Source: Escherichia coli (lineage in GTDB: Bacteria; Pseudomonadota; Gammaproteobacteria; Enterobacterales; Enterobacteriaceae). From it: a DNA stretch of 64,000 nt. The position numbers were made by a program, and so were the translations under genes. The stretch lies in NCBI RefSeq assembly GCF_017348835.2, contig NZ_CP071375.1; one strand, given 5' to 3'. Below are positions 1 through 52,066 of the stretch, in pieces (the stretch's first letter is position 1; the number at the start of each line of letters is the position of its first letter). The notes under the pieces were generated by a model. It worked only from the letters and a program-made list of their open reading frames with translations. It was not told the DNA's origin and did no database searches.

Positions 1-512
1 GCTCTGGCGACAGGTAACTGTGCCAGCCGCAGGGCATTCTGCCCGACTTCACTGCGACAACGCAGGGTCGGCGCAGCATCGCACGCTTTTTGCTGGGCAA
101 GCAGTTCTTCAACTGTCGTAACGCTTTTCACTTCAACTGGAATAGCCGCCAGACTGCGCTCAAGTCGGGCATCTCCTGGATGACGTTTCAGTTGATCCTC
201 AAGCAACAGCCGCGCCCGGTCATCATGACCAAAATGGCGATAGGCTTCCGCAAGGTATAAAGACAGCGGAATATTATCCGGCACCTGCTGGTGTATATAT
301 TCAAATTCGCGGATGGCGGTTGCTTCGTCGTTATTTTTCTGTGCCTTCAGCGCCTTATCGAGACGGGGATAAATAACAAAATGGCGATAATCGCTCAGCC
401 CCAGCTCTTCTGCGCTGGTGCCGATATTGTCTGCGAGTGCGCTGGTACTCAATAAAGACGTCAGCAGTAAACCAGACCATCCGATGACGCGATTAAGGTT
501 ATTCTCCTTCAT
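1..512 (-). CDS. nfrA: NfrA, phage N4 adsorption protein A; N-terminal part only, gene continues past the window start
   Basis: Reverse complement of 480-512 reads MKENNLNRVIG, starting 9 nt downstream of the nfrB stop; frame stays open to the window edge; product recognised by recall. Confidence 0.8.
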   Translation of the reverse strand, partial: MKENNLNRVIGWSGLLLTSLLSTSALADNIGTSAEELGLSDYRHFVIYPRLDKALKAQKNNDEATAIREFEYIHQQVPDNIPLSLYLAEAYRHFGHDDRARLLLEDQLKRHPGDARLERSLAAIPVEVKSVTTVEELLAQQKACDAAPTLRCRSEVGQNALRLAQLPVAR

Positions 513-2736
513 TTTCGGACTCCAGTTGCGCAACCTGTTCTGTGTTTAAACCTGCTTTGAGTAATAGTGATTGCATCGAAACTTGTAATTCGCGTTGAAT
601 TGTCAGGACGCGATCCAACGTTTCCTGGCTGATAACGCCTTCGGTGACCAAAAACTTGCCGAGCGGCAGAGAACTGCGTTCATGGCGCAATAACAACACG
701 TTAATTGCCGAACGATTAATATGACCGAGCGTGGTCAGTATTTCGGCGAACAGGAACTGATGCGGCACATATTGCCGCCAGATTTCACCGGCCTGCTGTT
801 CCGTGAGCCACTGATGCTGAACCGCATTGTACAACATTGCCCGCGGATCGTGACCGCGTCGGCGTGCATACCAGTGACGTAACCCCGTGACAATTTGTCC
901 CCGCAGAACAATGACGTAACGCACTTTGCGTCCGACTTTACGCGTCAGGGCCGCCAGCGAAACCGGGTCAATACCATCTTCACTGCCGACAATTAACTCA
1001 TCATTTTCCAGACGCAGCGGCAGTACCGCATAATGCAGCGCCACGGAGGGCGGCATTTCGGCAATCAGCGAGGAAGGGATCTGCCAGGCATCGATGGATT
1101 CCCACGCCACGCCGTTTTGCTCTGCCAGCGCCTGTGCCAGCTGCTCGGCGCTAATCAGCCCCTGCATCAGCATTGAACCGCCCAGGCGTAGACCTTCGAC
1201 GCGATTACGCAGTGCTGTATCGAGTTGTTCTTCAGTGATGACCTGATTTTCCAGCAGAATTTGACCTAACGGGCGCAACGAGCGGGTATCGCCAGTCACG
1301 CTGGGGAAGTCATGCGTTGTTTTATCCCACGCGACGCGACGTGGATCGCCGTGTTGAAGTACCTGTTTTAACGCGCGCCAGTTGGCCATGAAGTTAATCA
1401 GGTTGCCCCAGAAAAGACGCAGGACAGATAGTAGCCCCTGCGTCAGGCCGTAGTAGCCAGTGACGAAAATCACCCGCTGCACGATGCGGTTAACCATCAA
1501 GCCAAAGTTTAGCCACAGCAGGGTCATTAACCATGCGCTGCCGCTAAAAATAGAAAGGAAATGCCAGGCATCGGGCCACAAACTTTCATACGCCAGCAAC
1601 AGCAAAAGCTGGATCATCACCAGCATCGCGAGGAAGCTGACAAAGTTACTGATTGCCCCTTTGCGGTCGCGCCAGAGAAAGTAGTTCAGCGTCAGGCTGG
1701 AGGTCCATTTATGGGTTTTAAAGCCCTGGAAAACAATGCCGATGATCCAGCGGGATTTTTGTCGAACCGCAGTCGAAAAGGTATCGGGGAAATATTCGCG
1801 CACGCAGATCATGTTTGACGTCCGTGCGTGCTGTAAAAATTTACGCTGCTCGCGTTCTTTGGCTTCGTCCACCACCGGAAAACGGACAAAAATTTCCGTC
1901 ATACCTTTTTCTTTCAGGCGGAAGCCAATGTCGTAATCTTCAGTAAGACTCTGCACGTCGAAAGCAATACCGTCACCGTCAGCTAACAGTGCGGTCACGG
2001 CGCGGCGGCTGAAACAGGTGCCGACGCCTGCGCTGGGCACTTGTCCGGCGAGGGCTTCACGCACCGGAACATCTTTTCCATGCAGTTCTGAAAACTCATC
2101 AATGTAAGTCATGCTGGTGAAGTGCGTCCATTCGCGTTCGAACGGATACACCGGGATCTGAATCAGATCTTTACGCTCGACCAGATAGTTGAACAGACGC
2201 AACTCCATCGGTGAAATTACGTCTTCGGCGTCATGCAGAATAAAACCAGCAAAAGCGAAATTGGCGCTACGCTCAAATTGGGTGATGGCGTCCAGCACGT
2301 TGTTCAGACAGTCGGCTTTGCTGGTGGGGCCAGGACGCGCGCAGACTACCTTATGCACATTCGGGAAGCGAGCGCACACTTCGTCAACATCACGCTGAGT
2401 GTCCGGGTCGTTGGGGTAGGTGCCAACAAAGATATGATAGTTTTCGTAGTCGAGCGTGGTCGCCGCCAGCTCGGCCATATTGCCGATGACGCCCGTTTCA
2501 TTCCACGCCGGAACCATAATCGCTAACGGTTTTTCATCTGGTTTATACAGTTCGCGGTAACTCATTCGCGGGTAGCGGCGATAAACACTCAACTTGCGTT
2601 TAATGCGGCGTACCCAGTAGACGACATCAATAAAAAAATCGTCCAGCCCGCTGATGAACATGATGACCGCTAACGTTATCGCGATTACTTTTAAGCCATA
2701 GAGCCAGGTAGCAAAAACATCAAGAAGCCAGTCCAC
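499..2736 (-). CDS. nfrB: NfrB, membrane glycosyltransferase required for phage N4 adsorption
   Basis: 745-aa ORF with N-terminal TM helix and glycosyltransferase-like core; recognised by recall. Confidence 0.92.
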   Translation of the reverse strand: MDWLLDVFATWLYGLKVIAITLAVIMFISGLDDFFIDVVYWVRRIKRKLSVYRRYPRMSYRELYKPDEKPLAIMVPAWNETGVIGNMAELAATTLDYENYHIFVGTYPNDPDTQRDVDEVCARFPNVHKVVCARPGPTSKADCLNNVLDAITQFERSANFAFAGFILHDAEDVISPMELRLFNYLVERKDLIQIPVYPFEREWTHFTSMTYIDEFSELHGKDVPVREALAGQVPSAGVGTCFSRRAVTALLADGDGIAFDVQSLTEDYDIGFRLKEKGMTEIFVRFPVVDEAKEREQRKFLQHARTSNMICVREYFPDTFSTAVRQKSRWIIGIVFQGFKTHKWTSSLTLNYFLWRDRKGAISNFVSFLAMLVMIQLLLLLAYESLWPDAWHFLSIFSGSAWLMTLLWLNFGLMVNRIVQRVIFVTGYYGLTQGLLSVLRLFWGNLINFMANWRALKQVLQHGDPRRVAWDKTTHDFPSVTGDTRSLRPLGQILLENQVITEEQLDTALRNRVEGLRLGGSMLMQGLISAEQLAQALAEQNGVAWESIDAWQIPSSLIAEMPPSVALHYAVLPLRLENDELIVGSEDGIDPVSLAALTRKVGRKVRYVIVLRGQIVTGLRHWYARRRGHDPRAMLYNAVQHQWLTEQQAGEIWRQYVPHQFLFAEILTTLGHINRSAINVLLLRHERSSLPLGKFLVTEGVISQETLDRVLTIQRELQVSMQSLLLKAGLNTEQVAQLESENEGE

Positions 2737-2885
2737 ACAAAAACCTTACATTAACGCTGGTTATGTTTAGGGTGGCGTATATTAAGGTTTTTTATGAATT
2801 GTGACAGCTTTTTACCATTAATAGGTATGACTATTGCGGCACGTTATTTTTACACTGGTTATAAAAGTTGCCGTTTGCTGAAGGA

Positions 2886-4328
2886 TTAAGCGGGTAATGT
2901 GATAACAAACCTTGTCCCCCGCGCATTTGACGTAACCGCAACCGTGCCTTTATGCGCGACAACAATTGATTTCACTATCGCCAGCCCAATGCCGCTACCT
3001 TCGCCTTTTCGCTGGCGGGAGGGGTCAACGCGGTAGAAACGGTCAAACAATCGCGGTAAGTGTTCGGGCGCAATGGGCGTACCGGGGTTTTCGACGATAA
3101 CTTGCACCTGATGCTCGACCGTCTGGCAGCGCACTACAATAGCCTCACTGGGTGGCGTATAACGTAGGGCATTAGAAAGCAGGTTGCTTAACGCCCGACG
3201 CAGCATCAGCGGATCGCCCGCAACCTGACATTCGTCGCCAACAAATCGCAACTCCACGCCGCGATCTTCCGCTAACGCCTCGAAAAAATCGAACACTTTG
3301 CCGATTTCATCCGCCAGGTTGAGCATTTTCTTTTCGGGGATTAGCTGGTTGTTATCGGCCTGAGCGAGAAACAGCATATCGCTGACCATTTTCGCCATTC
3401 GCGTCAGCTCTTCGAGATTAGAGTAGAGCACATCTTCCAGTTCCTTCTGGCTGCGCGACTGGCTGAGGGCGATTTCCGTTTGCGTTATGAGATTAGTAAT
3501 TGGTGTGCGAATTTCGTGGGCGATATCCGCTGAGAAATTGGACTGGCGGGTAAAGACATCCTCAATACGCTCGATCATATGGTTGAACGACAGTACCAGC
3601 TGTTCCAGCTCAATGGGCACGGTCTGCGGGTCAAGGCGGACGTCGAGATCTTTCGAGGTGATATTCTGGATTTGACGGCTGACGCTGCGGATCGGCGCGT
3701 GACCTTTATGTACCGCCAACAGTACGATAAAGACGATTAGGATGCTGATTACCGATGCGGTCATAATAAGTTTATTCATCAAATCATTTATGTAATGAAG
3801 ATGAAAATCGATCGAAAGCGCGATGTAGAGCGTATAAATCGGTTTGCCGTCCACCAACGGGCCAACCGGCAAGTTAATCATCCGCCAGTTGCTGTGTTCC
3901 ATATGCCCGTGACCGTGGCCTGGCATCATCATCGTCGGGCCGGAAAGGAGATACACCTCGCCACCCTGAGCGTCTTTATCGGGTATGGCGTCACGCGTAA
4001 ACTCGCGGATATCCGGCGCACCGGGGGAGTGATACACCGTTTTACCCTGGCTATCTGCCAGGGAAATCAACACATTGGAATAACCACTGACGATATCTTC
4101 CAGCGTCATTAAGCGTCGGGCTTGCATTTCGTCAGGGTGATTTAGTACCCGTTCAAGGGTGGCGCTAATCTCTTTTAAATCATTAATATCCTGCTCGGCA
4201 AAATGCACTTTTACTGAGTGGATCATGATCCATGCAAAGGCGAAAAACGCCGCGATGGTGGCCAGGCTGATAAAAAAGGTCAGGCGGGTTGCCAGCGAAA
4301 ACGGGCGCTGAAATGGCTTACTGACCAT
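2886..4328 (-). CDS. cusS: CusS, copper/silver-sensing histidine kinase
   Basis: ORF 2886-4340; start taken at internal Met (MVSKPF...) giving 480 aa; [20 protein letters not shown] kinase motifs; 11-nt overlap with cusR. Confidence 0.9.
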
Positions 4329-5001
4329 CCGGCACCTCAAGCATGTAACCCACGCCGCGCACGGTTTGAATCAGCTTCGGCTCAAAGTCGTTGTCGATTT
4401 TGCCGCGTAGCCGCTTCACCGCCACATCAATGGCGTTAGTGTCGCTGTCGAAATTCATGTCCCATACCTGCGAGGCGATAAGCGAGCGGGGCAGCACTTC
4501 GCCCTGATGGCGAAGGAAAAACTCCAGCAGAGTAAATTCTTTACTGGTCAGAGTGATGCGCGTGCCGCTGCGGGTGACTTTGCGGCTGACGAGATCGACC
4601 ATCAGATCGGCAACCTGAAACTGACTTTCGATAATCACCGCCGCCCCGCGCCGCAGGAGAGTGCGCACCCGCGCCAGCAGTTCAGCAAAAGCGAATGGTT
4701 TCACCAGGTAGTCATCTGCCCCCAACTCCAGCCCCTTGACGCGATGTTCAATGGTGCCAAGCGCGGTAAGCAACAGAATCGGCATCCCTTTATTGGCGGA
4801 GCGCAACATGCGCACGATATCCCAGCCGTTCACGTCCGGCAGCATAATATCGAGGATTATCAGATCATAATCACCGGTCATCGCCAGATGGTAGCCATTC
4901 AGCCCGTTGTCGGCCAAATCGACCACAAAACCGGCTTCGGTTAACCCTTTGGTCAAGTATTCTCCGGTTTTCTTTTCATCTTCGACAATCAACAGTTTCA
5001 T
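4318..5001 (-). CDS. cusR: CusR, OmpR-family response regulator
   Basis: 227-aa [19 protein letters not shown] receiver domain plus winged-helix C-terminus. Confidence 0.93.
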
Positions 5002-5066
5002 ATTTCCTCCGCATGTTGCCCGGGCAATTCTAGAGTAGCGGGATCAGATGGCAATCGCTTATTGGC

Positions 5067-5088
5067 AAAATGACAATTTTGTCATTTT
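5067..5088. promoter_or_regulatory. CusR box: perfect palindrome AAAATGACAA-TT-TTGTCATTTT in the cusR / cusC divergent promoter
   Basis: Palindrome read directly at 5067-5088, placed between the divergent cusR and cusC starts. Confidence 0.8.
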
Positions 5089-5157
5089 CCTGTCACCGGA
5101 AAATCAGAGCCTGGCGAGTAAAGTTGGTGGTATAAAATCACCAGAAATTATCAGCCT

Positions 5158-6540
5158 ATGTCTCCTTGTAAACTTCTGCCATTTTGTGTGGCCCTTGCGC
5201 TAACCGGTTGTTCACTGGCACCGGATTATCAGCGCCCGGCAATGCCCGTGCCGCAGCAGTTCTCACTCAGCCAGAACGGCCTCGTTAACGCAGCAGATAA
5301 CTACCAGAACGCGGGCTGGCGCACCTTTTTTGTTGATAATCAGGTGAAGACGCTGATTAGCGAGGCGCTGGTGAATAACCGGGATTTGCGCATGGCGACG
5401 CTGAAAGTGCAGGAAGCGCGGGCGCAATATCGTCTGACCGATGCTGACCGCTACCCACAGCTCAATGGCGAGGGCAGCGGCAGCTGGAGCGGCAATCTTA
5501 AAGGCGATTCAGCCACGACGCGGGAGTTTTCTACTGGCCTTAACGCCAGCTTTGACCTCGATTTTTTCGGGCGCTTAAAGAACATGAGCGAAGCCGAGCG
5601 ACAAAATTATTTAGCCACTGAGGAAGCTCAGCGCGCGGTGCATATTCTGCTGGTTTCTAATGTCGCGCAAAGCTATTTCAATCAGCAGCTGGCGTATGCG
5701 CAATTGCAAATAGCCGAAGAAACGCTGCGTAATTATCAGCAGTCATATGCGTTTGTCGAAAAACAACTGTTGACAGGTAGCAGTAATGTTCTGGCGCTGG
5801 AACAGGCTCGCGGGGTGATTGAAAGTACCCGCAGCGACATCGCTAAACGTCAGGGGGAACTGGCGCAGGCGAATAATGCATTGCAACTGTTATTGGGAAG
5901 CTACGGCAAGCTGCCGCAAGCGCAGACAGTAAACGGCGGCAGTCTGCAAAGCGTTAAATTACCGGCGGGCTTGTCGTCGCAAATCTTATTGCAGCGCCCG
6001 GATATTATGGAAGCTGAACATGCGTTAATGGCGGCTAATGCCAATATTGGTGCTGCACGCGCGGCATTTTTCCCGTCTATCAGCCTGACCAGCGGAATAT
6101 CAACCGCCAGCAGCGATCTGTCGTCATTATTTAACGCCAGCAGCGGGATGTGGAATTTTATACCCAAAATTGAGATCCCCATTTTTAATGCCGGACGTAA
6201 CCAGGCCAATCTGGATATCGCCGAAATTCGCCAGCAGCAGTCGGTGGTGAATTATGAACAGAAAATCCAGAACGCCTTTAAAGAAGTGGCAGATGCGCTG
6301 GCATTACGTCAAAGCCTGAACGATCAAATTAGCGCCCAGCAGCGTTATCTGGCATCGCTGCAAATTACTTTGCAACGGGCGCGGGCATTATATCAGCACG
6401 GCGCAGTAAGTTATCTGGAAGTGCTGGATGCCGAGCGTTCTTTATTTGCAACCCGACAAACTTTACTTGACCTGAATTATGCCCGTCAGGTTAACGAAAT
6501 TTCTTTATATACCGCACTTGGTGGCGGTTGGCAGCAATAA
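5158..6540 (+). CDS. cusC: CusC, outer-membrane efflux channel lipoprotein
   Basis: 460-aa ORF with lipobox LTGCS near N-terminus; TolC/OprM-like. Confidence 0.92.
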   Translation: MSPCKLLPFCVALALTGCSLAPDYQRPAMPVPQQFSLSQNGLVNAADNYQNAGWRTFFVDNQVKTLISEALVNNRDLRMATLKVQEARAQYRLTDADRYPQLNGEGSGSWSGNLKGDSATTREFSTGLNASFDLDFFGRLKNMSEAERQNYLATEEAQRAVHILLVSNVAQSYFNQQLAYAQLQIAEETLRNYQQSYAFVEKQLLTGSSNVLALEQARGVIESTRSDIAKRQGELAQANNALQLLLGSYGKLPQAQTVNGGSLQSVKLPAGLSSQILLQRPDIMEAEHALMAANANIGAARAAFFPSISLTSGISTASSDLSSLFNASSGMWNFIPKIEIPIFNAGRNQANLDIAEIRQQQSVVNYEQKIQNAFKEVADALALRQSLNDQISAQQRYLASLQITLQRARALYQHGAVSYLEVLDAERSLFATRQTLLDLNYARQVNEISLYTALGGGWQQ

Positions 6541-6563
6541 CTTTTAACTCCAGGAGAGAATAA

Positions 6564-6896
6564 ATGAAAAAAGCACTGCAAGTCGCAATGTTCAGTCTGT
6601 TTACCGTTATTGGCTTTAATGCCCAGGCTAACGAACATCATCATGAAACCATGAGCGAAGCACAACCACAGGTTATTAGCGCCACTGGCGTGGTAAAAGG
6701 TGTTGATCTGGAAAGCAAAAAAATCACCATCCATCACGATCCGATTGCTGCCGTCAACTGGCCGGAGATGACCATGCGCTTTACCATCACCCCGCAGACG
6801 AAAATGAGTGAAATTAAAACCGGCGACAAAGTGGCGTTTAATTTTGTCCAGCAGGGCAACCTTTCTTTATTACAGGATATTAAAGTCAGCCAGTAA
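6564..6896 (+). CDS. cusF: CusF, periplasmic copper chaperone
   Basis: 110-aa ORF with signal peptide and His/Met-rich mature N-terminus; SD-like GGAGAG upstream. Confidence 0.92.
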   Translation: MKKALQVAMFSLFTVIGFNAQANEHHHETMSEAQPQVISATGVVKGVDLESKKITIHHDPIAAVNWPEMTMRFTITPQTKMSEIKTGDKVAFNFVQQGNLSLLQDIKVSQ

Positions 6897-6911
6897 CCCA
6901 GGTTTAATGAG

Positions 6912-8135
6912 ATGAAAAAAATCGCGCTTATTATCGGCAGCATGATCGCGGGCGGTATTATTTCTGCGGCAGGTTTTACCTGGTTTGCAAAGGCTGAACC
7001 ACCCGCAGAAAAAACATCGACCGCAGAACGTAAAATCTTATTCTGGTACGACCCTATGTATCCCAATACGCGGTTCGATAAACCAGGTAAATCGCCGTTT
7101 ATGGATATGGATCTGGTGCCGAAATATGCCGATGAAGAGAGTTCTGCGTCTGGTGTGCGCATTGACCCGACTCAGACGCAGAATCTGGGGGTGAAAACGG
7201 CTACCGTCACGCGCGGACCGCTGACTTTTGCCCAGAGTTTCCCGGCGAATGTCAGTTACAACGAGTATCAGTATGCCATTGTGCAGGCTCGCGCTGCCGG
7301 GTTTATCGACAAGGTGTATCCGCTTACCGTGGGCGATAAAGTACAAAAGGGCACACCGCTTCTCGACCTGACCATTCCTGACTGGGTGGAAGCGCAGAGT
7401 GAGTATTTACTGCTGCGCGAAACCGGCGGTACGGCGACCCAGACTGAAGGCATTCTTGAGCGGCTGCGACTGGCGGGAATGCCGGAGGCGGATATTCGCC
7501 GCCTGATCGCCACGCAAAAAATCCAGACTCGCTTTACGCTCAAAGCACCCATTGATGGCGTGATCACCGCGTTTGATCTGCGCGCGGGAATGAATATCGC
7601 CAAAGATAACGTGGTAGCGAAAATTCAGGGTATGGACCCGGTGTGGGTCACTGCTGCGATCCCGGAGTCTATCGCCTGGCTGGTGAAAGATGCCTCGCAG
7701 TTTACGCTCACCGTTCCGGCACGACCGGATAAAACACTCACCATCCGCAAATGGACGCTGCTACCCGGCGTGGATGCCGCGACCCGCACGCTGCAGCTGC
7801 GTCTGGAAGTCGACAACGCCGACGAGGCGCTAAAACCGGGCATGAACGCCTGGTTGCAACTCAATACCGCCAGCGAACCGATGCTGCTCATTCCGTCACA
7901 AGCGCTGATTGATACCGGCAGCGAACAGCGGGTGATTACCGTTGATGCCGACGGGCGCTTTGTACCGAAACGCGTTGCCGTTTTCCAGGCATCGCAAGGT
8001 GTCACCGCATTACGCTCTGGTCTGGCGGAAGGTGAAAAGGTGGTTTCCAGCGGCCTGTTCCTGATTGATTCCGAAGCCAATATTTCTGGCGCACTGGAGC
8101 GGATGCGCTCTGAAAGTGCTACCCATGCGCATTGA
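6912..8135 (+). CDS. cusB: CusB, membrane fusion protein of the Cus efflux pump
   Basis: 407-aa ORF directly after cusF; recognised by recall. Confidence 0.92.
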   Translation: MKKIALIIGSMIAGGIISAAGFTWFAKAEPPAEKTSTAERKILFWYDPMYPNTRFDKPGKSPFMDMDLVPKYADEESSASGVRIDPTQTQNLGVKTATVTRGPLTFAQSFPANVSYNEYQYAIVQARAAGFIDKVYPLTVGDKVQKGTPLLDLTIPDWVEAQSEYLLLRETGGTATQTEGILERLRLAGMPEADIRRLIATQKIQTRFTLKAPIDGVITAFDLRAGMNIAKDNVVAKIQGMDPVWVTAAIPESIAWLVKDASQFTLTVPARPDKTLTIRKWTLLPGVDAATRTLQLRLEVDNADEALKPGMNAWLQLNTASEPMLLIPSQALIDTGSEQRVITVDADGRFVPKRVAVFQASQGVTALRSGLAEGEKVVSSGLFLIDSEANISGALERMRSESATHAH

Positions 8136-8146
8136 GGGAATAACCA

Positions 8147-11100
8147 ATGATTGAATGGATTATTCGTCGCTCGGTGGCGAACCGTTTTCTGGTGCTGATG
8201 GGCGCGTTATTTCTGAGTATCTGGGGCACCTGGACCATCATTAACACGCCAGTGGATGCGTTGCCGGATCTCTCCGATGTGCAGGTGATTATTAAAACCA
8301 GCTATCCCGGTCAGGCACCGCAAATCGTTGAAAATCAGGTGACTTATCCGCTAACCACCACCATGTTGTCGGTGCCTGGCGCGAAGACTGTGCGTGGTTT
8401 CTCGCAGTTTGGCGACTCTTATGTGTATGTCATTTTCGAAGATGGCACCGATCCGTACTGGGCGCGCTCGCGGGTGCTGGAGTACCTCAACCAGGTACAG
8501 GGTAAGCTGCCTGCGGGAGTCAGCGCCGAGCTGGGGCCAGATGCCACGGGTGTTGGCTGGATCTATGAATATGCACTGGTGGATCGCAGCGGTAAGCACG
8601 ATCTTGCCGATTTACGCTCATTGCAGGACTGGTTTCTCAAATATGAGCTAAAAACCATCCCTGACGTTGCGGAAGTGGCGTCGGTGGGCGGTGTGGTGAA
8701 AGAGTATCAGGTGGTTATCGATCCTCAGCGCCTGGCGCAGTATGGCATCAGTCTCGGCGAAGTGAAAAATGCGCTGGATGCTTCAAACCAGGAAGCGGGC
8801 GGTTCGTCGATCGAACTGGCGGAAGCGGAATATATGGTGCGCGCCAGCGGCTATCTGCAAACGCTCGACGACTTTAATCACATCGTTTTAAAAGCCAGTG
8901 AAAATGGCGTGCCCGTTTATCTGCGTGATGTTGCGAAGGTCCAGGTTGGCCCGGAGATGCGCCGGGGCATTGCCGAACTGAACGGCGAAGGCGAAGTGGC
9001 AGGTGGGGTGGTGATCCTGCGCTCCGGCAAAAACGCCCGAGAAGTGATCGCCGCCGTGAAGGACAAACTGGAAACGCTGAAAAGTAGTCTGCCGGAAGGC
9101 GTGGAGATAGTTACAACATACGATCGCAGCCAGCTCATTGACCGCGCCATCGACAACCTCAGCGGCAAGTTGCTGGAAGAGTTTATTGTGGTGGCGGTAG
9201 TCTGTGCGCTGTTTCTCTGGCATGTGCGCTCGGCGCTGGTGGCGATTATTTCGTTGCCGCTGGGGTTGTGTATTGCTTTTATTGTCATGCACTTTCAGGG
9301 ACTGAACGCCAATATTATGTCGCTGGGCGGCATTGCGATTGCCGTCGGGGCGATGGTCGATGCCGCTATCGTCATGATCGAGAATGCGCATAAACGGCTG
9401 GAAGAGTGGCAGCACCAGCATCCTGACGCCACGCTGGATAATAAAACGCGCTGGCAGGTGATCACCGATGCGTCTGTTGAAGTGGGTCCGGCGTTGTTTA
9501 TCAGTCTGCTGATTATCACGTTGTCGTTTATCCCGATCTTCACCCTGGAAGGGCAGGAAGGGCGTCTGTTTGGCCCGCTGGCGTTCACTAAAACCTATGC
9601 GATGGCGGGCGCGGCGCTGCTGGCGATCGTAGTGATCCCGATCCTGATGGGCTACTGGATCCGTGGCAAAATTCCGCCGGAAAGCAGTAACCCGCTCAAT
9701 CGCTTTTTGATTCGTGTTTATCATCCGCTATTGCTGAAAGTACTGCACTGGCCGAAAACCACGCTGTTGGTGGCCGCGCTTTCGGTGCTGACGGTTCTCT
9801 GGCCGCTCAATAAAGTTGGCGGGGAATTTTTACCGCAGATCAATGAAGGCGACTTGTTGTATATGCCATCGACGCTGCCGGGGATTTCCGCAGCAGAGGC
9901 GGCGAGTATGCTGCAAAAAACCGACAAGCTAATTATGAGCGTACCTGAAGTGGCGCGGGTATTTGGCAAAACCGGGAAAGCGGAAACCGCCACCGATTCT
10001 GCTCCGCTGGAGATGGTAGAAACGACCATCCAGCTTAAGCCGCAGGAGCAGTGGCGGCCAGGCATGACGATGGACAAAATCATTGAGGAACTGGATAACA
10101 CCGTGCGTCTGCCGGGGCTGGCGAATCTGTGGGTGCCGCCAATTCGTAACCGTATCGATATGCTCTCGACCGGCATTAAAAGCCCCATCGGCATTAAAGT
10201 TTCCGGCACTGTGCTGGCGGATATCGACGCGATGGCGGAGCAAATTGAAGAGGTGGCACGAACGGTGCCAGGCGTGGCTTCTGCTCTAGCCGAGCGTCTG
10301 GAAGGTGGGCGCTATATCAACGTTGAGATTAACCGTGAAAAAGCCGCGCGTTACGGTATGACGGTGGCAGATGTGCAGTTGTTTGTGACTTCTGCTGTGG
10401 GCGGGGCGATGGTTGGCGAAACGGTGGAAGGAATTGCCCGTTATCCAATTAATCTGCGTTATCCGCAAAGCTGGCGCGATAGTCCGCAGGCACTGCGCCA
10501 GCTGCCGATTCTGACGCCGATGAAGCAGCAAATCACCCTGGCAGACGTGGCCGACGTTAAAGTCTCTACCGGACCGTCGATGCTGAAAACCGAGAATGCG
10601 CGCCCGACGAGCTGGATTTATATCGATGCCCGCGATCGTGACATGGTGTCGGTGGTTCACGATTTGCAAAAAGCGATAGCTGAAAAAGTGCAGTTAAAAC
10701 CGGGCACCAGCGTGGCATTCTCCGGGCAGTTCGAGCTACTGGAGCGCGCCAACCATAAGCTGAAACTCATGGTGCCGATGACACTGATGATCATCTTCGT
10801 GCTGTTGTATCTGGCATTCCGTCGGGTGGGCGAAGCGTTGCTGATTATCAGCAGCGTACCGTTTGCGCTGGTGGGCGGCATCTGGTTGCTGTGGTGGATG
10901 GGCTTTCATCTTTCTGTGGCGACGGGCACTGGCTTTATTGCCCTTGCCGGGGTTGCTGCCGAATTTGGCGTGGTGATGCTGATGTATTTACGTCACGCCA
11001 TAGAGGCCGAGCCGTCGTTGAATAATCCGCAAACATTCAGCGAGCAGAAGCTGGATGAGGCGTTGTATCACGGCGCGGTTCTGCGCGTGCGCCCGAAAGC

Positions 11101-11290
11101 GATGACGGTGGCGGTGATTATCGCCGGTTTGCTGCCGATTCTGTGGGGAACGGGGGCTGGTTCAGAGGTGATGAGCCGGATTGCCGCGCCGATGATTGGC
11201 GGCATGATCACCGCGCCTTTGCTGTCGCTGTTTATTATCCCGGCGGCGTATAAGCTGATGTGGCTGCACCGACATCGGGTACGGAAATAA
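8147..11290 (+). CDS. cusA: CusA, RND-type inner-membrane copper/silver efflux pump
   Basis: 1047-aa ORF, 12-TM RND architecture; recognised by recall. Confidence 0.95.
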
Positions 11291-11391
11291 AAGCAGGATA
11301 CCCCGTTTAACCGTGTGGATTGTGTCTTGCGACGATGGGCACTAAATGTTAAAAGGTGCCCCTCAACAAAAAAGACACACAGGGGAAAGGC

Positions 11392-12768
11392 GTGAAAAAC
11401 GCGTCAACCGTATCGGAAGATACTGCGTCGAATCAAGAGCCGACGCTTCATCGCGGATTACATAACCGTCATATTCAACTGATTGCGCTGGGTGGCGCAA
11501 TTGGTACTGGTCTGTTTCTTGGCATTGGCCCAGCGATTCAGATGGCGGGTCCGGCTGTATTGCTGGGCTACGGCGTCGCCGGGATCATCGCTTTCCTGAT
11601 TATGCGCCAGCTCGGCGAGATGGTGGTCGAAGAGCCGGTATCCGGTTCATTTGCCCACTTTGCCTATAAATACTGGGGACCGTTTGCAGGCTTCCTCTCT
11701 GGCTGGAATTACTGGGTGATGTTCGTGCTGGTGGGAATGGCAGAGCTGACCGCTGCGGGCATCTATATGCAGTACTGGTTCCCGGATGTTCCAACGTGGA
11801 TTTGGGCTGCCGCCTTCTTTATTATCATCAACGCCGTTAACCTGGTGAACGTGCGCTTATATGGCGAAACGGAGTTCTGGTTCGCGCTGATTAAAGTGCT
11901 GGCAATCATCGGCATGATCGGTTTTGGCCTGTGGCTGCTGTTTTCTGGGCACGGTGGCGAGAAAGCCAGTATCGACAACCTCTGGCGCTACGGCGGTTTC
12001 TTCGCCACCGGCTGGAATGGGCTGATTTTGTCGCTGGCGGTAATTATGTTCTCCTTCGGCGGTCTGGAGCTGATTGGGATTACTGCCGCTGAAGCGCGCG
12101 ATCCGGAAAAAAGCATTCCAAAAGCGGTAAATCAGGTGGTGTATCGCATCCTGCTGTTTTACATCGGTTCACTGGTGGTTTTACTGGCGCTCTATCCGTG
12201 GGTGGAAGTGAAATCCAACAGTAGCCCGTTTGTGATGATTTTCCATAATCTCGACAGCAACGTGGTAGCTTCTGCGCTGAACTTCGTCATTCTGGTAGCA
12301 TCGCTGTCGGTGTATAACAGCGGGGTTTACTCTAACAGCCGCATGCTGTTTGGCCTTTCTGTGCAGGGTAATGCGCCGAAGTTCCTTACCCGTGTTAGCC
12401 GTCGCGGCGTGCCGATTAACTCGCTGATGCTTTCCGGAGCGATCACTTCGCTGGTGGTGTTAATCAACTATCTGCTGCCGCAAAAAGCGTTTGGTCTGCT
12501 GATGGCGCTGGTGGTAGCAACGCTGCTGTTGAACTGGATTATGATCTGCCTGGCGCATCTGCGTTTTCGCGCGGCGATGCGACGTCAGGGACGTGAAACA
12601 CAGTTTAAGGCGCTGCTTTATCCGTTCGGCAACTATCTTTGCATTGCCTTCCTCGGCATGATTTTGCTGCTGATGTGCACGATGGATGATATGCGCTTGT
12701 CAGCGATCCTGCTGCCGGTGTGGATTGTATTCCTGTTTGTGGCATTTAAAACGCTGCGTCGGAAATAA
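11392..12768 (+). CDS. pheP: PheP, phenylalanine-specific permease (APC family)
   Basis: ORF 11356-12768; likely GTG start at 11392 (MKNASTVSED...) giving 458 aa. Confidence 0.9.
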   Translation: MKNASTVSEDTASNQEPTLHRGLHNRHIQLIALGGAIGTGLFLGIGPAIQMAGPAVLLGYGVAGIIAFLIMRQLGEMVVEEPVSGSFAHFAYKYWGPFAGFLSGWNYWVMFVLVGMAELTAAGIYMQYWFPDVPTWIWAAAFFIIINAVNLVNVRLYGETEFWFALIKVLAIIGMIGFGLWLLFSGHGGEKASIDNLWRYGGFFATGWNGLILSLAVIMFSFGGLELIGITAAEARDPEKSIPKAVNQVVYRILLFYIGSLVVLLALYPWVEVKSNSSPFVMIFHNLDSNVVASALNFVILVASLSVYNSGVYSNSRMLFGLSVQGNAPKFLTRVSRRGVPINSLMLSGAITSLVVLINYLLPQKAFGLLMALVVATLLLNWIMICLAHLRFRAAMRRQGRETQFKALLYPFGNYLCIAFLGMILLLMCTMDDMRLSAILLPVWIVFLFVAFKTLRRK

Positions 12769-12799
12769 GGCATTCACGCTACATCCGACAAAACGATGT

Positions 12800-12833
12800 C
12801 CGCTCTCATCCATTCGATGAGAGCGGTTTTTTT
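12800..12833 (+). terminator. Rho-independent terminator of pheP
   Basis: Hairpin CCGCTCTCATC / GATGAGAGCGG followed by TTTTTTT, read directly. Confidence 0.75.
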
Positions 12834-12835
12834 AA

Positions 12836-14131
<1,296 letters not shown>

Positions 14132-16812: not shown

Positions 16813-17098
16813 TTATGTTGGCGTTTTCTATTCAGTATAGAAGTGGGAGCGGCCAGGCGAGATGCGGAAGTTCTGGAATGTTTCTTTTTTTGGTGATGGT
16901 GACTGAAGCAATTTGGCTACTTTTGCAATGTGACAAGTTATGGCACGGCTGGCTGGTGGCGAAGAATTTTGATGATTGGGGCGCGCAGAATAAAACTGGC
17001 TCAGCTTCAGTTGATCAAATGAGGAGTGAGAAGTCCGAAACAAGACTCACTGTATAAATAAACAGCTATTTTATTGAGGAAGGGTAAGATAACGGCGG

Positions 17099-17332
17099 GT
17101 GCCTGAAGCTTTCCGGTTTCAGGTTAACTCTGAGGTCTGGAAAGATGAAGCCCCAGGAGATATTTCTATCAACCCTGGGGCTACCTACCCAAACCTGAAC
17201 AATTTGGATGGTAGTCCCTTCTTCGCATGGAGGCAATATAAACATGCTGACGAAATATGCCCTTGTGGCAGTCATAGTGCTGTGTTTGACAGTGCTGGGA
17301 TTTACGCTTCTGGTCGGAGACTCGTTGTGTGA
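17099..17332 (+). CDS. mokE: Possible mokE, the overlapping reading frame that couples hokE translation; start codon uncertain
   Basis: Open frame in a different phase overlapping the hokE start, as in hok/mok loci; the annotated start at 17099 is GTG and lies close to the likely mRNA 5' end. Confidence 0.3.
17125..17200 (-). ncRNA. sokE: Expected position of the sokE antisense RNA (boundaries approximate)
   Basis: Inferred only from hok/sok family architecture (antisense to the mok leader upstream of hok); no promoter or terminator pinned down. Confidence 0.3.
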
Positions 17333-17402: not shown

Positions 17403-17496
17403 TGCGGGGAGCAATCCCCGCATATCCGGTTGTCAGGTCAGAGTGGTAAGGCACCTGCTTTACACTTTCGCCCGCAGTCAGTGATGGCTGCGGGCG
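17403..17496. other. Two perfect hairpins downstream of hokE (hok mRNA 3' fold-back region / entD 3' end); the first carries a GGGG-N6-CCCC motif
   Basis: TGCGGGG-agcaat-CCCCGCA at 17403-17422 and CGCCCGCAG-N10-CTGCGGGCG at 17469-17496, read directly; neither has a clear U-tract. Confidence 0.6.
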
Positions 17497-18174: not shown

Positions 18175-18275
18175 TGCCTGATGCGCTACGCTTATCAGGC
18201 CTACGTGGTCCTGCAATATATTGAATTGGCAAGATTTTTGTAGGCCGGATAAGGCGTTCACGCCGCATCCGGCAT
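18175..18275. repeat. REP/BIME-type palindromic repeats between entD and fepA
   Basis: GCCTGATGCGCTACGCTTATCAGGCCTAC and GTAGGCCGGATAAGGCGTTCACGCCGCATCCGGCA, typical REP palindromic units. Confidence 0.8.
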
Positions 18276-18312: not shown

Positions 18313-20553
18313 TCAGAAGTGAGTGTTTACGCTCATATACAACGTACGTCCCGGCTCGTTATAGGTATACGCCCCGGCACCGGCGATATAGTTGGCCCCT
18401 GCCAGATCGCCCGTGGTCTGGGCATTACCCGCACGCCACAAACGTTTGTCGAACAGGTTGTCCACGCCGCCGGTCAGACTGACATTCTTCGTCACATCCC
18501 AGGTCGCGCTCAGACCCACAATGCTGTAAGGACTGATTTCTTTGGTTTCCGGGCCAACCGCTGGCTGACCTTTATAGTTGTACTTCTTCGGCTGCTGCTT
18601 ACCGTACCAGGTGAAGGTCGTTTGCATCGACAAATCTTCTCGTGCCTGCCAGCTCAGCGTTGAGTTCAACGTATACTCCGGGATGATCGACAAACGGTCG
18701 CCCGTGGTTTTGTTTTCACTCTTCAGCATATAAGTGATGTTATTAGTCCACATCACCGTTTCGCTAACCGGTACGTTTAACGATCCTTCCAGACCTTCAA
18801 CCACCGCTTTCGGCACGTTATCCCACTGATAGAGATCGGTGCCGACTGCGTTTTGCCCTACAGCCACATAGCCCGCTTCAATCTTATTGCGATAATCGTT
18901 ACGGAACCAGGTGACGCCCGCCAGCCAGCCGTCGCGTTTGAACTCCAGACCAATCTCTTTGTTGATGCTGGTTTCCGCTTTCAGGTCATCATTACCTTGC
19001 AGATAGCAGCCGCCCGCGCTGGCATAGCAACCCTGACCTTTACTGTAGAGAATGTAGTTCGGGTTAGTCTGGTACAGGCTCGGCGCTTTATAAGCACGGG
19101 CAATGCCCATTTTCAGCGTGAAGTCATCGCCTAAACCTTGCGATATGTTCAGCGCCGGGCTCCAGTTATTGCCAACTATACTGTGATGATCGAAACGCAG
19201 CCCCGGCGTTACGATGGTGCTGTCAGTCAGCTCCATATTGTTTTCGGCAAACAGCGAGAAAATTTCTGCTTTTGAATACGGGCTACGGTCGGTGGCACTC
19301 ACGCCATCAATAGCGCCACCGGTATTCGTTCCGGTCAGTGCCTGGGTGTTGGAACTTAAGTCCTTCATCCGCTGCTGATTCCACTCCGTACCCAGCGTCA
19401 GCGTCTGGTTAACGAGGAAATCAATCGGCAGGTTAACTTCGCTGTGCAGCATCACGTCATCAAGATCGATATCGACGAAATCCTGTGTCGCTTTTTCGTT
19501 AAATTTCCCTTCGGTACCGCCCGCCAGACCTTCCGGAATACGCGAGTTACGGGTGTGTTCGTACTGCACCCAGTTGCTGGTGGTCACGCCGTTATCCCAG
19601 CCACCGTTCCAGGTCAGCGAGTAGTTCTGGCGATACAGGCGGTTGGTTTCATCGCCATATTTCGAGCGAGTGTAAGCGTCAGAGTTGGTGTTCTGGGTAT
19701 CGCCCGCATACAGGTTACCCTGGCGGCTGTAACCCGCTTCCAGTTCGAGTGATTGCAGAGGCGCGAAGTCCCAGCGCACCACGCCATTAATATCTTTGTT
19801 GATCACCCCTTCGCGCCCGGCTGGTAACGTCGTGGCATACGTTCCGGCACGCGCGGACTGATGGCCCTGGTTGATATCCCACGCGTCAGCCTGAGTTTTG
19901 TCGAGGTTGCCATACAAGCGGAAGCTGAATTCGTCGCCCAGCGGACCGGTCAGGCTAAAGTTAGTGCGTTTGGTGGCACCTTCCTCTTTATGTTCTGGCG
20001 CATTGAAATATGCGTCCCAGGAGCCGTGCCACTCGCCGCTGCCTTTTTTGGTAATGATGTTAACCACGCCGCCCGCCGCGCCGTTGCCGTAACGCGCAGC
20101 TGCCGGACCACGCAGAACTTCAATACGTTCAATCATTTCAGGTGGCACCCAGGAAGTATCACCACGGGTATCGCGCTCGCCACGCCAGCCCTGACGCACC
20201 GAGTTACGGCTGCTTACCGGTTTGCCGTCAATCAAAATTAGCGTGTTTTCCGGACCCATGCCGCGAATATCAATCTGTCGGTTATTCCCACGCTGACCAC
20301 TGGTGGAGTTACCGGTCAGGTTAACGCCTGGCATGGTACGGATGATCTCCGACACATCGCGGGCAACCGGGTTTTTGCGGATTTCATCTGCGGTGATGGT
20401 CGAAACGCCAGGCGCCTGTAAGTTCTGCTCGGCGGCGGTAACGACAATAGTATCGTCATGTGAAACAGGAGTATCGGTCGGCTCTTGTGCCTGCGCTACC
20501 CCATAAATCCCCAGATTGACCAACAAGGCCAGGGAATGAATCTTCTTGTTCAT
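18313..20553 (-). CDS. fepA: FepA, TonB-dependent ferric enterobactin outer-membrane receptor
   Basis: ORF 18313-20613; start taken at MNKKIHSLALLVNLGIYGVAQA (signal peptide) giving 746 aa; C-terminal ...YMSVNTHF. Confidence 0.95.
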   Translation of the reverse strand: MNKKIHSLALLVNLGIYGVAQAQEPTDTPVSHDDTIVVTAAEQNLQAPGVSTITADEIRKNPVARDVSEIIRTMPGVNLTGNSTSGQRGNNRQIDIRGMGPENTLILIDGKPVSSRNSVRQGWRGERDTRGDTSWVPPEMIERIEVLRGPAAARYGNGAAGGVVNIITKKGSGEWHGSWDAYFNAPEHKEEGATKRTNFSLTGPLGDEFSFRLYGNLDKTQADAWDINQGHQSARAGTYATTLPAGREGVINKDINGVVRWDFAPLQSLELEAGYSRQGNLYAGDTQNTNSDAYTRSKYGDETNRLYRQNYSLTWNGGWDNGVTTSNWVQYEHTRNSRIPEGLAGGTEGKFNEKATQDFVDIDLDDVMLHSEVNLPIDFLVNQTLTLGTEWNQQRMKDLSSNTQALTGTNTGGAIDGVSATDRSPYSKAEIFSLFAENNMELTDSTIVTPGLRFDHHSIVGNNWSPALNISQGLGDDFTLKMGIARAYKAPSLYQTNPNYILYSKGQGCYASAGGCYLQGNDDLKAETSINKEIGLEFKRDGWLAGVTWFRNDYRNKIEAGYVAVGQNAVGTDLYQWDNVPKAVVEGLEGSLNVPVSETVMWTNNITYMLKSENKTTGDRLSIIPEYTLNSTLSWQAREDLSMQTTFTWYGKQQPKKYNYKGQPAVGPETKEISPYSIVGLSATWDVTKNVSLTGGVDNLFDKRLWRAGNAQTTGDLAGANYIAGAGAYTYNEPGRTLYMSVNTHF

Positions 20554-46443: not shown

Positions 46444-46726
46444 TAATTTGTCCTTTTCAGTCAGTGCAAAAGTCGAGTAAAAGGCATAACCTATCACTGT
46501 CATAGGTAAGAGCTTAGATCAGGTGATTGCCCTTTGTTTATGAGGGTGTTGTAATCCATGTCGTTGTTGCATTTGTAAGGGCAACACCTCAGCCTGCAGG
46601 CAGGCGCTGAAGATACCAAAGGGTAGTTCAGATTACACGGTCACCTGGAAAGGGGGCCATTTTACTTTTTATCGCCGCTGGCGGTGCAAAGTTCACAAAG
46701 TTGTCTTACGAAGGTTGTAAGGTAAA

Positions 46727-51837: not shown

Positions 51838-52066
51838 TTTTACTCCATGTCGTCGGTACTGCGAGTGTCGCAGATAAACATACCCAAAAGAAAACCCTCA
51901 CCGTCAGGCGGCGAGGGTTTAACTCACATGATGATACTGACTGTTGCTCACTCTTTGAAGTGATTTGCGTCACATTCAGGGAATTCCTCAATGCAGCGCA
52001 TTATGTATAAATCTTAATCGCCTTGGTTTATGGAAGACGAATTAGCGTGTTTTGTAAATCAGAGGA

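Follow-up and report, generated by a model that had tools for sequence, protein, structure and literature searches.

The nfrB-nfrA region at the edge of an Escherichia coli chromosomal window: the phage N4 receptor glycan, MshEN modules and overlapping reading frames

The first 2736 nucleotides of the window (the whole stretch of E. coli DNA analysed here, 64,000 nt) had been described, from the letters alone, as phage N4 receptor genes, i.e., nfrB followed by the beginning of nfrA. The question arises whether such genes encode a receptor in the literal sense, and whether the locus can be considered intact in its source strain. Positions 1-2736 (minus strand) very probably belong to the chromosomal nfrB-nfrA-ybcH operon, of which they represent the promoter-proximal part, in an intact and ordinary version. 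The function of this system is already known, namely a c-di-GMP-activated exopolysaccharide synthase with an outer-membrane pore.

Identity and conservation of the operon

Strains PE164 and F2_81 have annotated nfrB and nfrA genes (RefSeq) whose DNA is 100% identical to that of the present region; F2_81 is collinear with the window over the 58.9 kb which were compared (positions 1-8900 and 14001-64000), with 9 SNPs. NfrB reached 1330.8 bits with the NCBIfam equivalog NF008411, for which 1170 bits are the cut-off, in a match spanning model positions 1-722 of 723, and is identical to the K-12 protein in 744 of 745 residues, the sole difference being A563P; the identification of nfrB was thus confirmed. 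It was also correct that the stretch from 1 to 2736 contains only the N-terminus of NfrA, since codons 1-170 are identical to the N-terminal part of NfrA from PE164 and F2_81. In both of these complete genomes nfrA is neither disrupted nor absent, but intact (990 aa), and ybcH abuts it. The window contains 170 of the 990 nfrA codons and no ybcH; the intactness of these genes in the source strain would follow from the two near-identical genomes. Full-length NfrA from the same genomes scored 1889.8 bits with NF007302 (cut-off 1223) and consists, in terms of Pfam domains, of TPR repeats, the first stretch being located at aa 60-124 (TPR_19), and NfrA_C at aa 809-977. A signal peptide comprises aa 1-27 (ending in ...SALA and followed by DNIG), with a hydrophobic segment at aa 9-27. 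YbcH from these genomes matched its NCBIfam equivalog with 521.9 bits (cut-off 344) and contains the Pfam domain DUF4434.

The closest characterized counterpart is nfrBA-ybcH of E. coli K-12 (b0569-b0567), known as the Nfr/NGR system (Junkermeier & Hengge 2021, Sellner et al. 2021). Both loci share the site between cusS and envY, the gene lengths of 745, 990 and 296 aa, the 14-nt overlap of nfrB and nfrA and the TAAATG junction, where ybcH starts directly after the nfrA stop codon. DNA identity is 99.1%, and 983 of 990 NfrA residues are the same; besides A563P in NfrB, the differences are T84S in the window part of NfrA and six NfrA substitutions beyond it, which amounts to ordinary allelic variation.

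At least 80% of the operon is covered in 5047 of 5426 complete E. coli genomes (about 93%), and in 11 of 11 related loci the gene order is nfrB-nfrA-ybcH on one strand, with ybcH, which lies outside the window, abutting nfrA. Ten matches were labelled as plasmid; these are non-mobilizable records, several of which, up to 4.9 Mb in size, are evidently mislabelled chromosomes, and plasmid-borne copies were therefore discounted. Both nfrB and nfrA are under strong purifying selection, with whole-gene dN/dS values of 0.026 and 0.086, respectively, for 11 alleles. A comparison of alleles for diversifying selection, as had been proposed with the original prediction, was negative at the level of genes and of domains (dN/dS 0.016-0.10).

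Table 1. Features of the nfrB-nfrA region and its upstream spacer (coordinates of the window)
Feature	Position	Strand	Basis or remarks
cusS-nfrB intergenic region	2737..2885	-	149 nt
Weak sigma-70-like candidate	CTGTCA 2807..2802, 17-nt spacer, TAATAT 2784..2779	-	only 8 of 12 positions match
AAGG, Shine-Dalgarno sequence for nfrB	2747..2744	-	sequence
nfrB, complete CDS	499..2736	-	GTG start at 2736, TAA stop 501..499, 745 aa; c-di-GMP-activated family-2 glycosyltransferase
NfrB N-terminal hydrophobic segment, aa 7-40	2617-2718	-	Kyte-Doolittle scan
NfrB GT2 catalytic domain, aa 70-382	1591..2529	-	Pfam PF13632, PF13641
NfrB D169 (in HDAED)	2230-2232	-	residue check
NfrB TED motif, aa 265-267	D267: 1936-1938	-	residue check
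NfrB QKSRW, aa 326-330	W330: 1747-1749	-	residue check
Strongest NfrB hydrophobic (predicted transmembrane) segment, aa 360-388	1573..1659	-	Kyte-Doolittle scan
MshEN_N module 1, aa 489-540	1117..1272	-	tandem 24-residue c-di-GMP-binding motifs; NF053729, 51.8 bits; motif scan
MshEN_C alpha/beta subdomain, aa 542-628	853..1113	-	Pfam PF05157; contains A563P
Second MshEN_N-like module, aa 662-714	595..753	-	motif scan, NF053729, family alignment, module-1-only HMM, model/fold match
GGAG, Shine-Dalgarno-like sequence for nfrA	520..523	-	7 nt 5' of ATG, within nfrB CDS; function inferred
nfrB 3' end / nfrA 5' end overlap	499..512	-	14 nt, ATGAAGGAGAATAA; invariant in 11 alleles
nfrA, 5' part only	1..512	-	ATG 512..510, codons 1-170; no stop up to the window edge

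Receptor glycan and protein receptor

NfrB contains GT2 and MshEN domains according to Pfam (GT2 at E = 2e-40), and the signatures of processive family-2 enzymes, DxD, TED and QxxRW, are all present, in agreement with the glycosyltransferase-type protein which had been proposed. The residues shown experimentally to be important, D169, D267, W330, L490, G491, G519 and L537, are retained without exception. Following the strongest hydrophobic segment, weaker ones extend to about aa 452 (Kyte-Doolittle). The PDB yielded no solved structure of NfrB or NfrA; matches were to MshEN/GSPII domains and generic TPR proteins only.

By domain content the three proteins form a synthase-dependent exopolysaccharide secretion system, with NfrB as inner-membrane synthase, NfrA as outer-membrane TPR/beta-barrel porin and YbcH as putative periplasmic accessory protein. 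Similar systems are those for cellulose (BcsA/BcsC), PNAG (PgaCD/PgaA) and alginate (Alg8-Alg44/AlgK-AlgE), which also combine a c-di-GMP-activated processive GT2 enzyme of the inner membrane (DxD/TED/QxxRW) with a TPR/beta-barrel exporter of the outer membrane. However, c-di-GMP is received by an MshEN domain in the Nfr system, whereas PilZ serves this purpose in BcsA and Alg44, and an inter-subunit site in PgaCD; in addition, UDP-ManNAc is the presumed substrate and the accessory protein is the DUF4434 protein YbcH.

In the 2021 papers a ManNAc-dependent glycan, NGR, was described as the primary receptor of N4, under local c-di-GMP control by DgcJ (PMC8669469, PMC8669472); its chemical identity was not directly determined there, and the later literature in the searchable library contained no paper defining the polymer or an NfrB structure. 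Transferred to the present locus, NfrB would be an inner-membrane processive family-2 glycosyltransferase producing the secreted polysaccharide NGR from UDP-ManNAc, which WecB would supply. [quoted passage not shown] The glycan role, c-di-GMP binding, dependence on glycosyltransferase activity and DgcJ specificity are adopted here from the literature.

The classical model does without a polysaccharide: the tail sheath of N4 (gp65) binds to NfrA itself as the outer-membrane receptor, and NfrB assists from the inner membrane in the entry of the genome and vRNAP. This historical interpretation survives in the RefSeq names "bacteriophage adsorption protein NfrA" and "phage receptor"; a function in the remodelling of peptidoglycan was suggested, as a speculation, by Wang et al. 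2016 (supplement of PMC5013675), and the 2021 papers leave room for NfrA as an additional, secondary receptor. As an account of the locus it appears improbable, however, since the substitutions D169A, D267A and W330A abolish plating of N4 without lowering NfrB levels (PMC8669469), and since N4 requires wecB, the source of UDP-ManNAc, but no other part of the ECA pathway (PMC8669469, PMC8669472). The architecture of NfrB, NfrA and YbcH, being that of an exopolysaccharide secretion system, also speaks against it. YbcH is dispensable for infection by N4 (PMC8669469). The original prediction was right in linking the locus to N4 and to exopolysaccharide, but the term "receptor genes" is outdated, since the products build and export the glycan which is the primary receptor (PMC8669469, PMC8669472). 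Whether a strain is susceptible to N4 and several other phages (Vequintavirinae, phi92-like) is determined by this locus, and local c-di-GMP signalling has a textbook example in the Nfr system.

MshEN modules of NfrB

The two motifs of module 1 are located at aa 489-512 and 517-540 and include L490, G491, G519 and L537. An AlphaFold model of the C-terminal part, calculated with the P563 sequence, was confident throughout (pLDDT 93.9), and its residues 480-625 could be superimposed on the c-di-GMP-bound structures of MshE and PilF (5HTL, 8PDK) with TM values of 0.72-0.75. The ATPases MshE (V. cholerae) and PilF (T. thermophilus) share the tandem 24-residue motifs with NfrB; there the domain is fused to a secretion ATPase, whereas in NfrB it is fused to a glycosyltransferase.

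Binding of c-di-GMP, glycosyltransferase activity and the requirement for N4 were shown for NfrB of K-12 (PMC8669469, PMC8669472), and we infer that these properties extend to the window allele. The allele with P563, encoded here by CCC at 1048-1050 (minus strand), is found in only 2 of 5426 complete genomes. Considering this rarity, this lineage could perhaps possess the locus in a functionally impaired state and thus be resistant to N4, either through A563P or through a defect in nfrA, ybcH, dgcJ or wecB outside the window; natural inactivation occurs in other strains, by ISEcp1-blaCTX-M-55 in nfrA, by IS1 or by deletions, and B strains are likewise affected (PMC8669472). Such an impairment is nevertheless very improbable: every ORF is intact in the closest genomes, all known critical residues are kept and the P563 model shows no region of low confidence. 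Position 563, next after a conserved proline where a helix begins, varies among solved MshEN/GSPII homologues, which have A, E or S there. Judged from sequence, the source strain most likely possesses an intact and functional receptor-glycan pathway.

The only potentially new element is a second MshEN_N-like module in the tail of NfrB, of interest mainly for c-di-GMP specialists; the identity of the locus is not changed by it. The region aa 630-745 alone gave 46.4 bits with NF053729, the model of the 53-residue domain with tandem motifs (cut-off 38), and a profile of the tail matched MshE residues 9-62 with E = 5e-11. The tail model has the four-helix fold of such modules, and 55-58 of its residues could be aligned with 5HTL and 8PDK (rmsd 1.2-1.8 A), with weak Foldseek E-values of 0.17-3; when module 1 was compared directly with the tail by BLASTP, no alignment was obtained, the relationship being visible only with profiles. 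Motif II' (aa 691-714, PLGKFLVTEGVISQETLDRVLTIQ) matches 10 of 11 consensus positions and has kept Gly693. Motif I' (aa 662-685) is degenerate, with FAE instead of LGD; Ala664 occupies the place of the key glycine, which is present in most homologues. A degenerate fifth half-motif follows at about aa 720-743. The second module is retained throughout the family; among 150 representative NfrB homologues, 56 carry 2-5 modules of the MshEN_N type, which is reminiscent of PilF with its three GSPII domains. In contrast to MshE and PilF, the second module of NfrB consists of MshEN_N without MshEN_C.

In MshE, the glycines G11 and G40 are essential for binding of c-di-GMP. A conserved glycine at position 3 of both motifs is found in module 1, but not in the second module, and because Ala664 replaces the first key glycine, competence of this module for binding c-di-GMP in E. 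coli appears doubtful. It is a tentative and rather unlikely idea that the module provides an extra c-di-GMP site, for cooperative or higher-order sensing, or that in E. coli a degenerate module is re-used for docking of DgcJ or autoinhibition of the glycosyltransferase. If true, it might account for the only moderate drop in N4 plating that results from single and double substitutions within module 1 (PMC8669469, PMC8669472). No mention of a second NfrB module was found in the searchable text of the NfrB literature examined.

Upstream spacer and the nfrB/nfrA junction

The nfrB promoter must be located in the intergenic region between cusS and nfrB, in which hardly any difference exists among the 11 alleles compared, to within 7 nt of the cusS stop codon. 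A scan of positions 1-3300 for promoters and terminators detected nothing in this spacer, with counts equal or close to those expected from shuffled sequences. The sigma-28 consensus (TAAAGTTT-N11-GCCGATAA), with up to 3 mismatches, had no match upstream of nfrB; the sole match in the window (46669-46695) was at chance level, 48 of 100 shuffles containing at least one. FliA-dependent expression is reported in the literature, in contrast to the absence of a sigma-28 or a good sigma-70 consensus upstream. Within 1-3300, a repeat search gave only short two-copy chance matches, and Rfam, applied to the whole window, indicated no RNA family.

On the minus strand the junction of the two genes reads ...CTGGAGTCCGAAAATGAAGGAGAATAACCTTAAT... 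The ATG of nfrA (512-510) is situated upstream of the TAA of nfrB (501-499), so that the reading frames overlap by 14 nt; RefSeq annotation shows the overlap in 11 of 11 genomes inspected. The earlier description of nfrA as starting 9 nt after the nfrB stop, with two separate and independently translated cistrons, receives no support from the sequence and can practically be dismissed, since the nfrA start precedes the nfrB stop, only with the start at 512 does the product have the N-terminus annotated for NfrA, including the signal peptide, and an overlap of 14 bp was explicitly given by Junkermeier & Hengge 2021 (PMC8669469). At the distance of 9 nt the triplet is CGT, or GTC (Val9) in the frame of nfrA, neither being a start codon there, and the next ATG (480-478) lies 18 nt downstream of the stop, out of the nfrA frame. 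Translation of nfrA is probably coupled to that of nfrB, because its ATG is preceded by GGAG and lies within nfrB, 14 nt from the end of that gene; the corrected arrangement should be of relevance wherever the 3' end of nfrB is to be engineered.

Reading frames and identity of the nfrBA locus

The locus at the left end of the window is correctly identified as nfrB and nfrA, is already well characterised, and is intact and under purifying selection. The gene calls, coordinates and orientation of the original prediction, and its statement that only the N-terminus of NfrA lies in the window, were borne out by the ORF list and by translation. The nfrA product starts with MKENNLNRVIGWSGLLLTSLLSTSALADNIG. 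The prediction had placed the nfrA start 9 nt after the nfrB stop, and this was wrong: at the junction, which reads CTGGAGTCCGAAAATGAAGGAGAATAACCTTAAT on the minus strand, the nfrA ATG is found at 512-510 and the nfrB stop at 501-499; the two reading frames therefore share 14 nt (512..499), as stated explicitly ("overlap by 14 bp") by Junkermeier and Hengge (2021; PMC8669469). A GGAG is located 7 nt 5' of this ATG. The 9-nt gap was ruled out, since the triplet at that distance is CGT, or GTC (Val9) in the nfrA frame, and the next ATG (480-478), 18 nt downstream of the stop, is out of frame.

Window 1-2900 is 100% identical to PE164 and F2_81, both complete genomes of pig-associated E. coli, and 99.1% identical to K-12. 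With F2_81 the window is collinear across the 58.9 kb compared (1-8900 and 14001-64000), with 9 SNPs; positions 8901-14000 were compared with PE164 alone. The continuation of nfrA and ybcH to the left is the same in PE164 and F2_81, and on this basis the best available estimate is that the source strain would possess an intact NfrA of 990 aa and YbcH of 296 aa. RefSeq annotation gives nfrB (2238 nt), nfrA (2973 nt, with the 14-nt overlap) and, directly after the nfrA stop, ybcH (891 nt), flanked by cusS and cusR upstream and envY downstream. NfrB, full-length NfrA and YbcH passed their NCBIfam equivalog models (1330.8, 1889.8 and 521.9 bits; cut-offs 1170, 1223 and 344, respectively), and Pfam assigned GT2 domains and MshEN to NfrB, TPR repeats and NfrA_C to NfrA, and DUF4434 to YbcH. 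In many PGAP-annotated RefSeq genomes nfrB is labelled "nrfB" or "NrfB", a propagated gene-symbol typo, as nrfB denotes the nitrite-reductase pentahaem cytochrome.

NfrA differs from K-12 in 7 of 990 residues, inside the window in T84S only; the sole difference in NfrB is A563P (codon CCC). The exact 61-mer with this codon was found in 2 of 5426 genomes, namely the pig strains PE164 and F2_81; a further 2963 matched it with at least one mismatch, the rest being unmatched by so short a query. The corresponding position of solved MshEN/GSPII homologues lies at a helix start, after a conserved Pro, and is occupied by A, E or S, and the AlphaFold model with Pro563 is confident at this residue; judged from this structural context, the substitution is probably neutral.

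Coordinates of features in the window
Feature	Position	Strand	Remarks
nfrA, 5' part	from 512 past window edge	-	170 codons without stop (translation)
nfrB	499-2736	-	745 aa; GTG start 2736, TAA stop 501-499 (six-frame ORF list)
Second MshEN_N-type tandem c-di-GMP motif module	595-753	-	NfrB aa 662-714
Codon 563 of nfrB	1048-1050	-	A563P
cusS-nfrB spacer	2737-2885		149 nt
cusS	2886-4328		480 aa (RefSeq)
cusC-cusF	5158-6896		
sok antitoxin RNA of hokE locus	17097-17252	+	Rfam gathering score
ES036 sRNA	18197-18238	-	Rfam gathering score
fepA	18313-20553	-	collinearity with F2_81 annotation
wzz(fepE)	26313-27446	+	collinearity with F2_81 annotation
STnc70 sRNA	46577-46670	+	Rfam gathering score
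rnk leader	51883-51991	-	Rfam gathering score

Function, upstream region and selection

The predicted connection with phage N4 stands; the wording "receptor genes" should give way to a description of genes that make and export the glycan serving as receptor (PMC8669469; Sellner et al. 2021, PMC8669472). According to the same reports, WecB is required and the remaining ECA pathway is not, and on this ground the product has been proposed to be a ManNAc-based exopolysaccharide (NGR); in NfrB, residues D169, D267 and W330 of the catalytic site and L490, G491, G519 and L537 of MshEN are important for N4 infection; NfrB is activated locally by DgcJ via direct interaction, and the operon is described as FliA-activated, with post-exponential expression. 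All seven residues are kept in the NfrB of the window. An AlphaFold model of NfrB aa 480-745 (pLDDT 93.9) gave TM scores of 0.72-0.75 to c-di-GMP-bound MshE and PilF-GSPII crystal structures; neither NfrB nor NfrA had a solved structure in the PDB copy searched.

The cusS-nfrB spacer shows hardly any variation between alleles as far as 7 nt from the cusS stop, even where an ISAs1 element and toxin genes replace cusRS. It contained no sigma-28 consensus and no sigma-70 promoter passing the scan, the only sigma-70-like candidate matching 8 of 12 positions; the FliA activation described in the literature may work indirectly or through a weak site. O157:H7 and certain further lineages (related loci L007, L009 and L010) lack cusRS immediately upstream of nfrB (window-equivalent ~2879 onward), where zincin-like toxin-domain genes and an ISAs1/ISEc1 transposase are found in its place; homology is lost 7 nt short of the cusS stop, and the nfrB upstream region is spared. 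For cusS, the mechanical ORF list gives 484 aa from a TTG start, ending at 4340; the RefSeq version overlaps cusR by 11 nt.

Of 5426 complete E. coli genomes, 5047 contained the 6.2-kb operon at a coverage of at least 80% and with 97.6-100% identity; it is nearly always single-copy and chromosomal. Apparent "plasmid" copies turned out to be non-mobilizable records, several of chromosome size. In 11 alleles across this identity range all three ORFs were intact and both gene junctions invariant. Values of dN/dS (Nei-Gojobori, ratio of means) were 0.026 for nfrB, 0.086 for nfrA and 0.077 for ybcH (11 alleles each) and 0.057 for cusS (7 alleles), and never exceeded 0.10 in sub-regions of NfrB and NfrA. 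Diversifying selection, for which a check had been proposed, was thus not seen at whole-gene or sub-region resolution, and its absence fits a conserved-glycan receptor rather than a variable protein surface. A natural knock-out of nfrA was present in a cat urinary isolate (CUVET16-465, locus L016), where an ISEcp1-blaCTX-M-55 transposition unit follows after ~80 codons, i.e., a phage-receptor exporter was inactivated by a resistance element; further genomes had IS1 insertions and operon deletions.

A second MshEN_N module in the NfrB tail

When NfrB was scanned for the 24-residue motif from the literature, three copies were found, at residues 489-512 (8/11 consensus positions), 517-540 (11/11) and 691-714 (10/11); only 1% of shuffles gave any match. 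With aa 630-745 alone, the curated NCBIfam model NF053729 (53-residue tandem motif) scored 46.4 bits (cut-off 38), residues 665-714 aligning with model positions 4-53, and an HMM built from module 1 only detected module 2 at 665-711 (E=4e-4), as well as 2-5 modules in 56 of 150 representative homologues. A tail-only profile matched MshE within its c-di-GMP-binding segment (5HTL residues 9-62; E=5e-11) and PilF (E=1e-29). The best 15 PDB matches of the tail model (pLDDT 90.9) were all MshEN/GSPII, with 54-58 aligned columns and rmsd of 1.2-2.9 A; the Foldseek E-values (0.17-3.2) are weak, the domain being very short. There is thus good support for homology between the tail and MshEN_N.

An exhaustive HMMER search found 5210 relatives. 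The second module is conserved family-wide: when 19 full-length homologues, 18-47% identical to E. coli NfrB across the aligned C-terminal region, were aligned with the E. coli protein, both of its halves were conserved ("LGD.LV..G......L..AL ... LG..L...G.IS...L...AL..Q"). L-G-D is replaced by F-A-E in E. coli and the two representatives nearest to it, and thus Ala664 stands where MshE has an essential Gly; because of this residue, c-di-GMP binding by the second module is doubtful in E. coli. No mention of the module occurs in the searchable text of PMC8669469, PMC8669472 and Wang et al.; for c-di-GMP specialists it is a modest lead.

Other features in and around the window

FepA is a receptor for colicin B/D and phage H8, and wzz(fepE) encodes a regulator of O-antigen chain length, so that the window contains phage-relevant determinants besides nfrBA. 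PE164 carries an IS4-like element of ~1.3 kb (IS421 family, frameshifted) between entD and hokE, at window ~17407-17419, with duplication of a 12-bp target; the element is missing from the window and F2_81. Just left of the window, envY is split by an IS3 element in PE164. In the lineage of the window CusC comprises 460 aa and cusF begins 23 nt beyond it, compared to 457 aa and a 157-nt gap in K-12; the 3' end of cusC and the spacer behind it are thus polymorphic by an indel.
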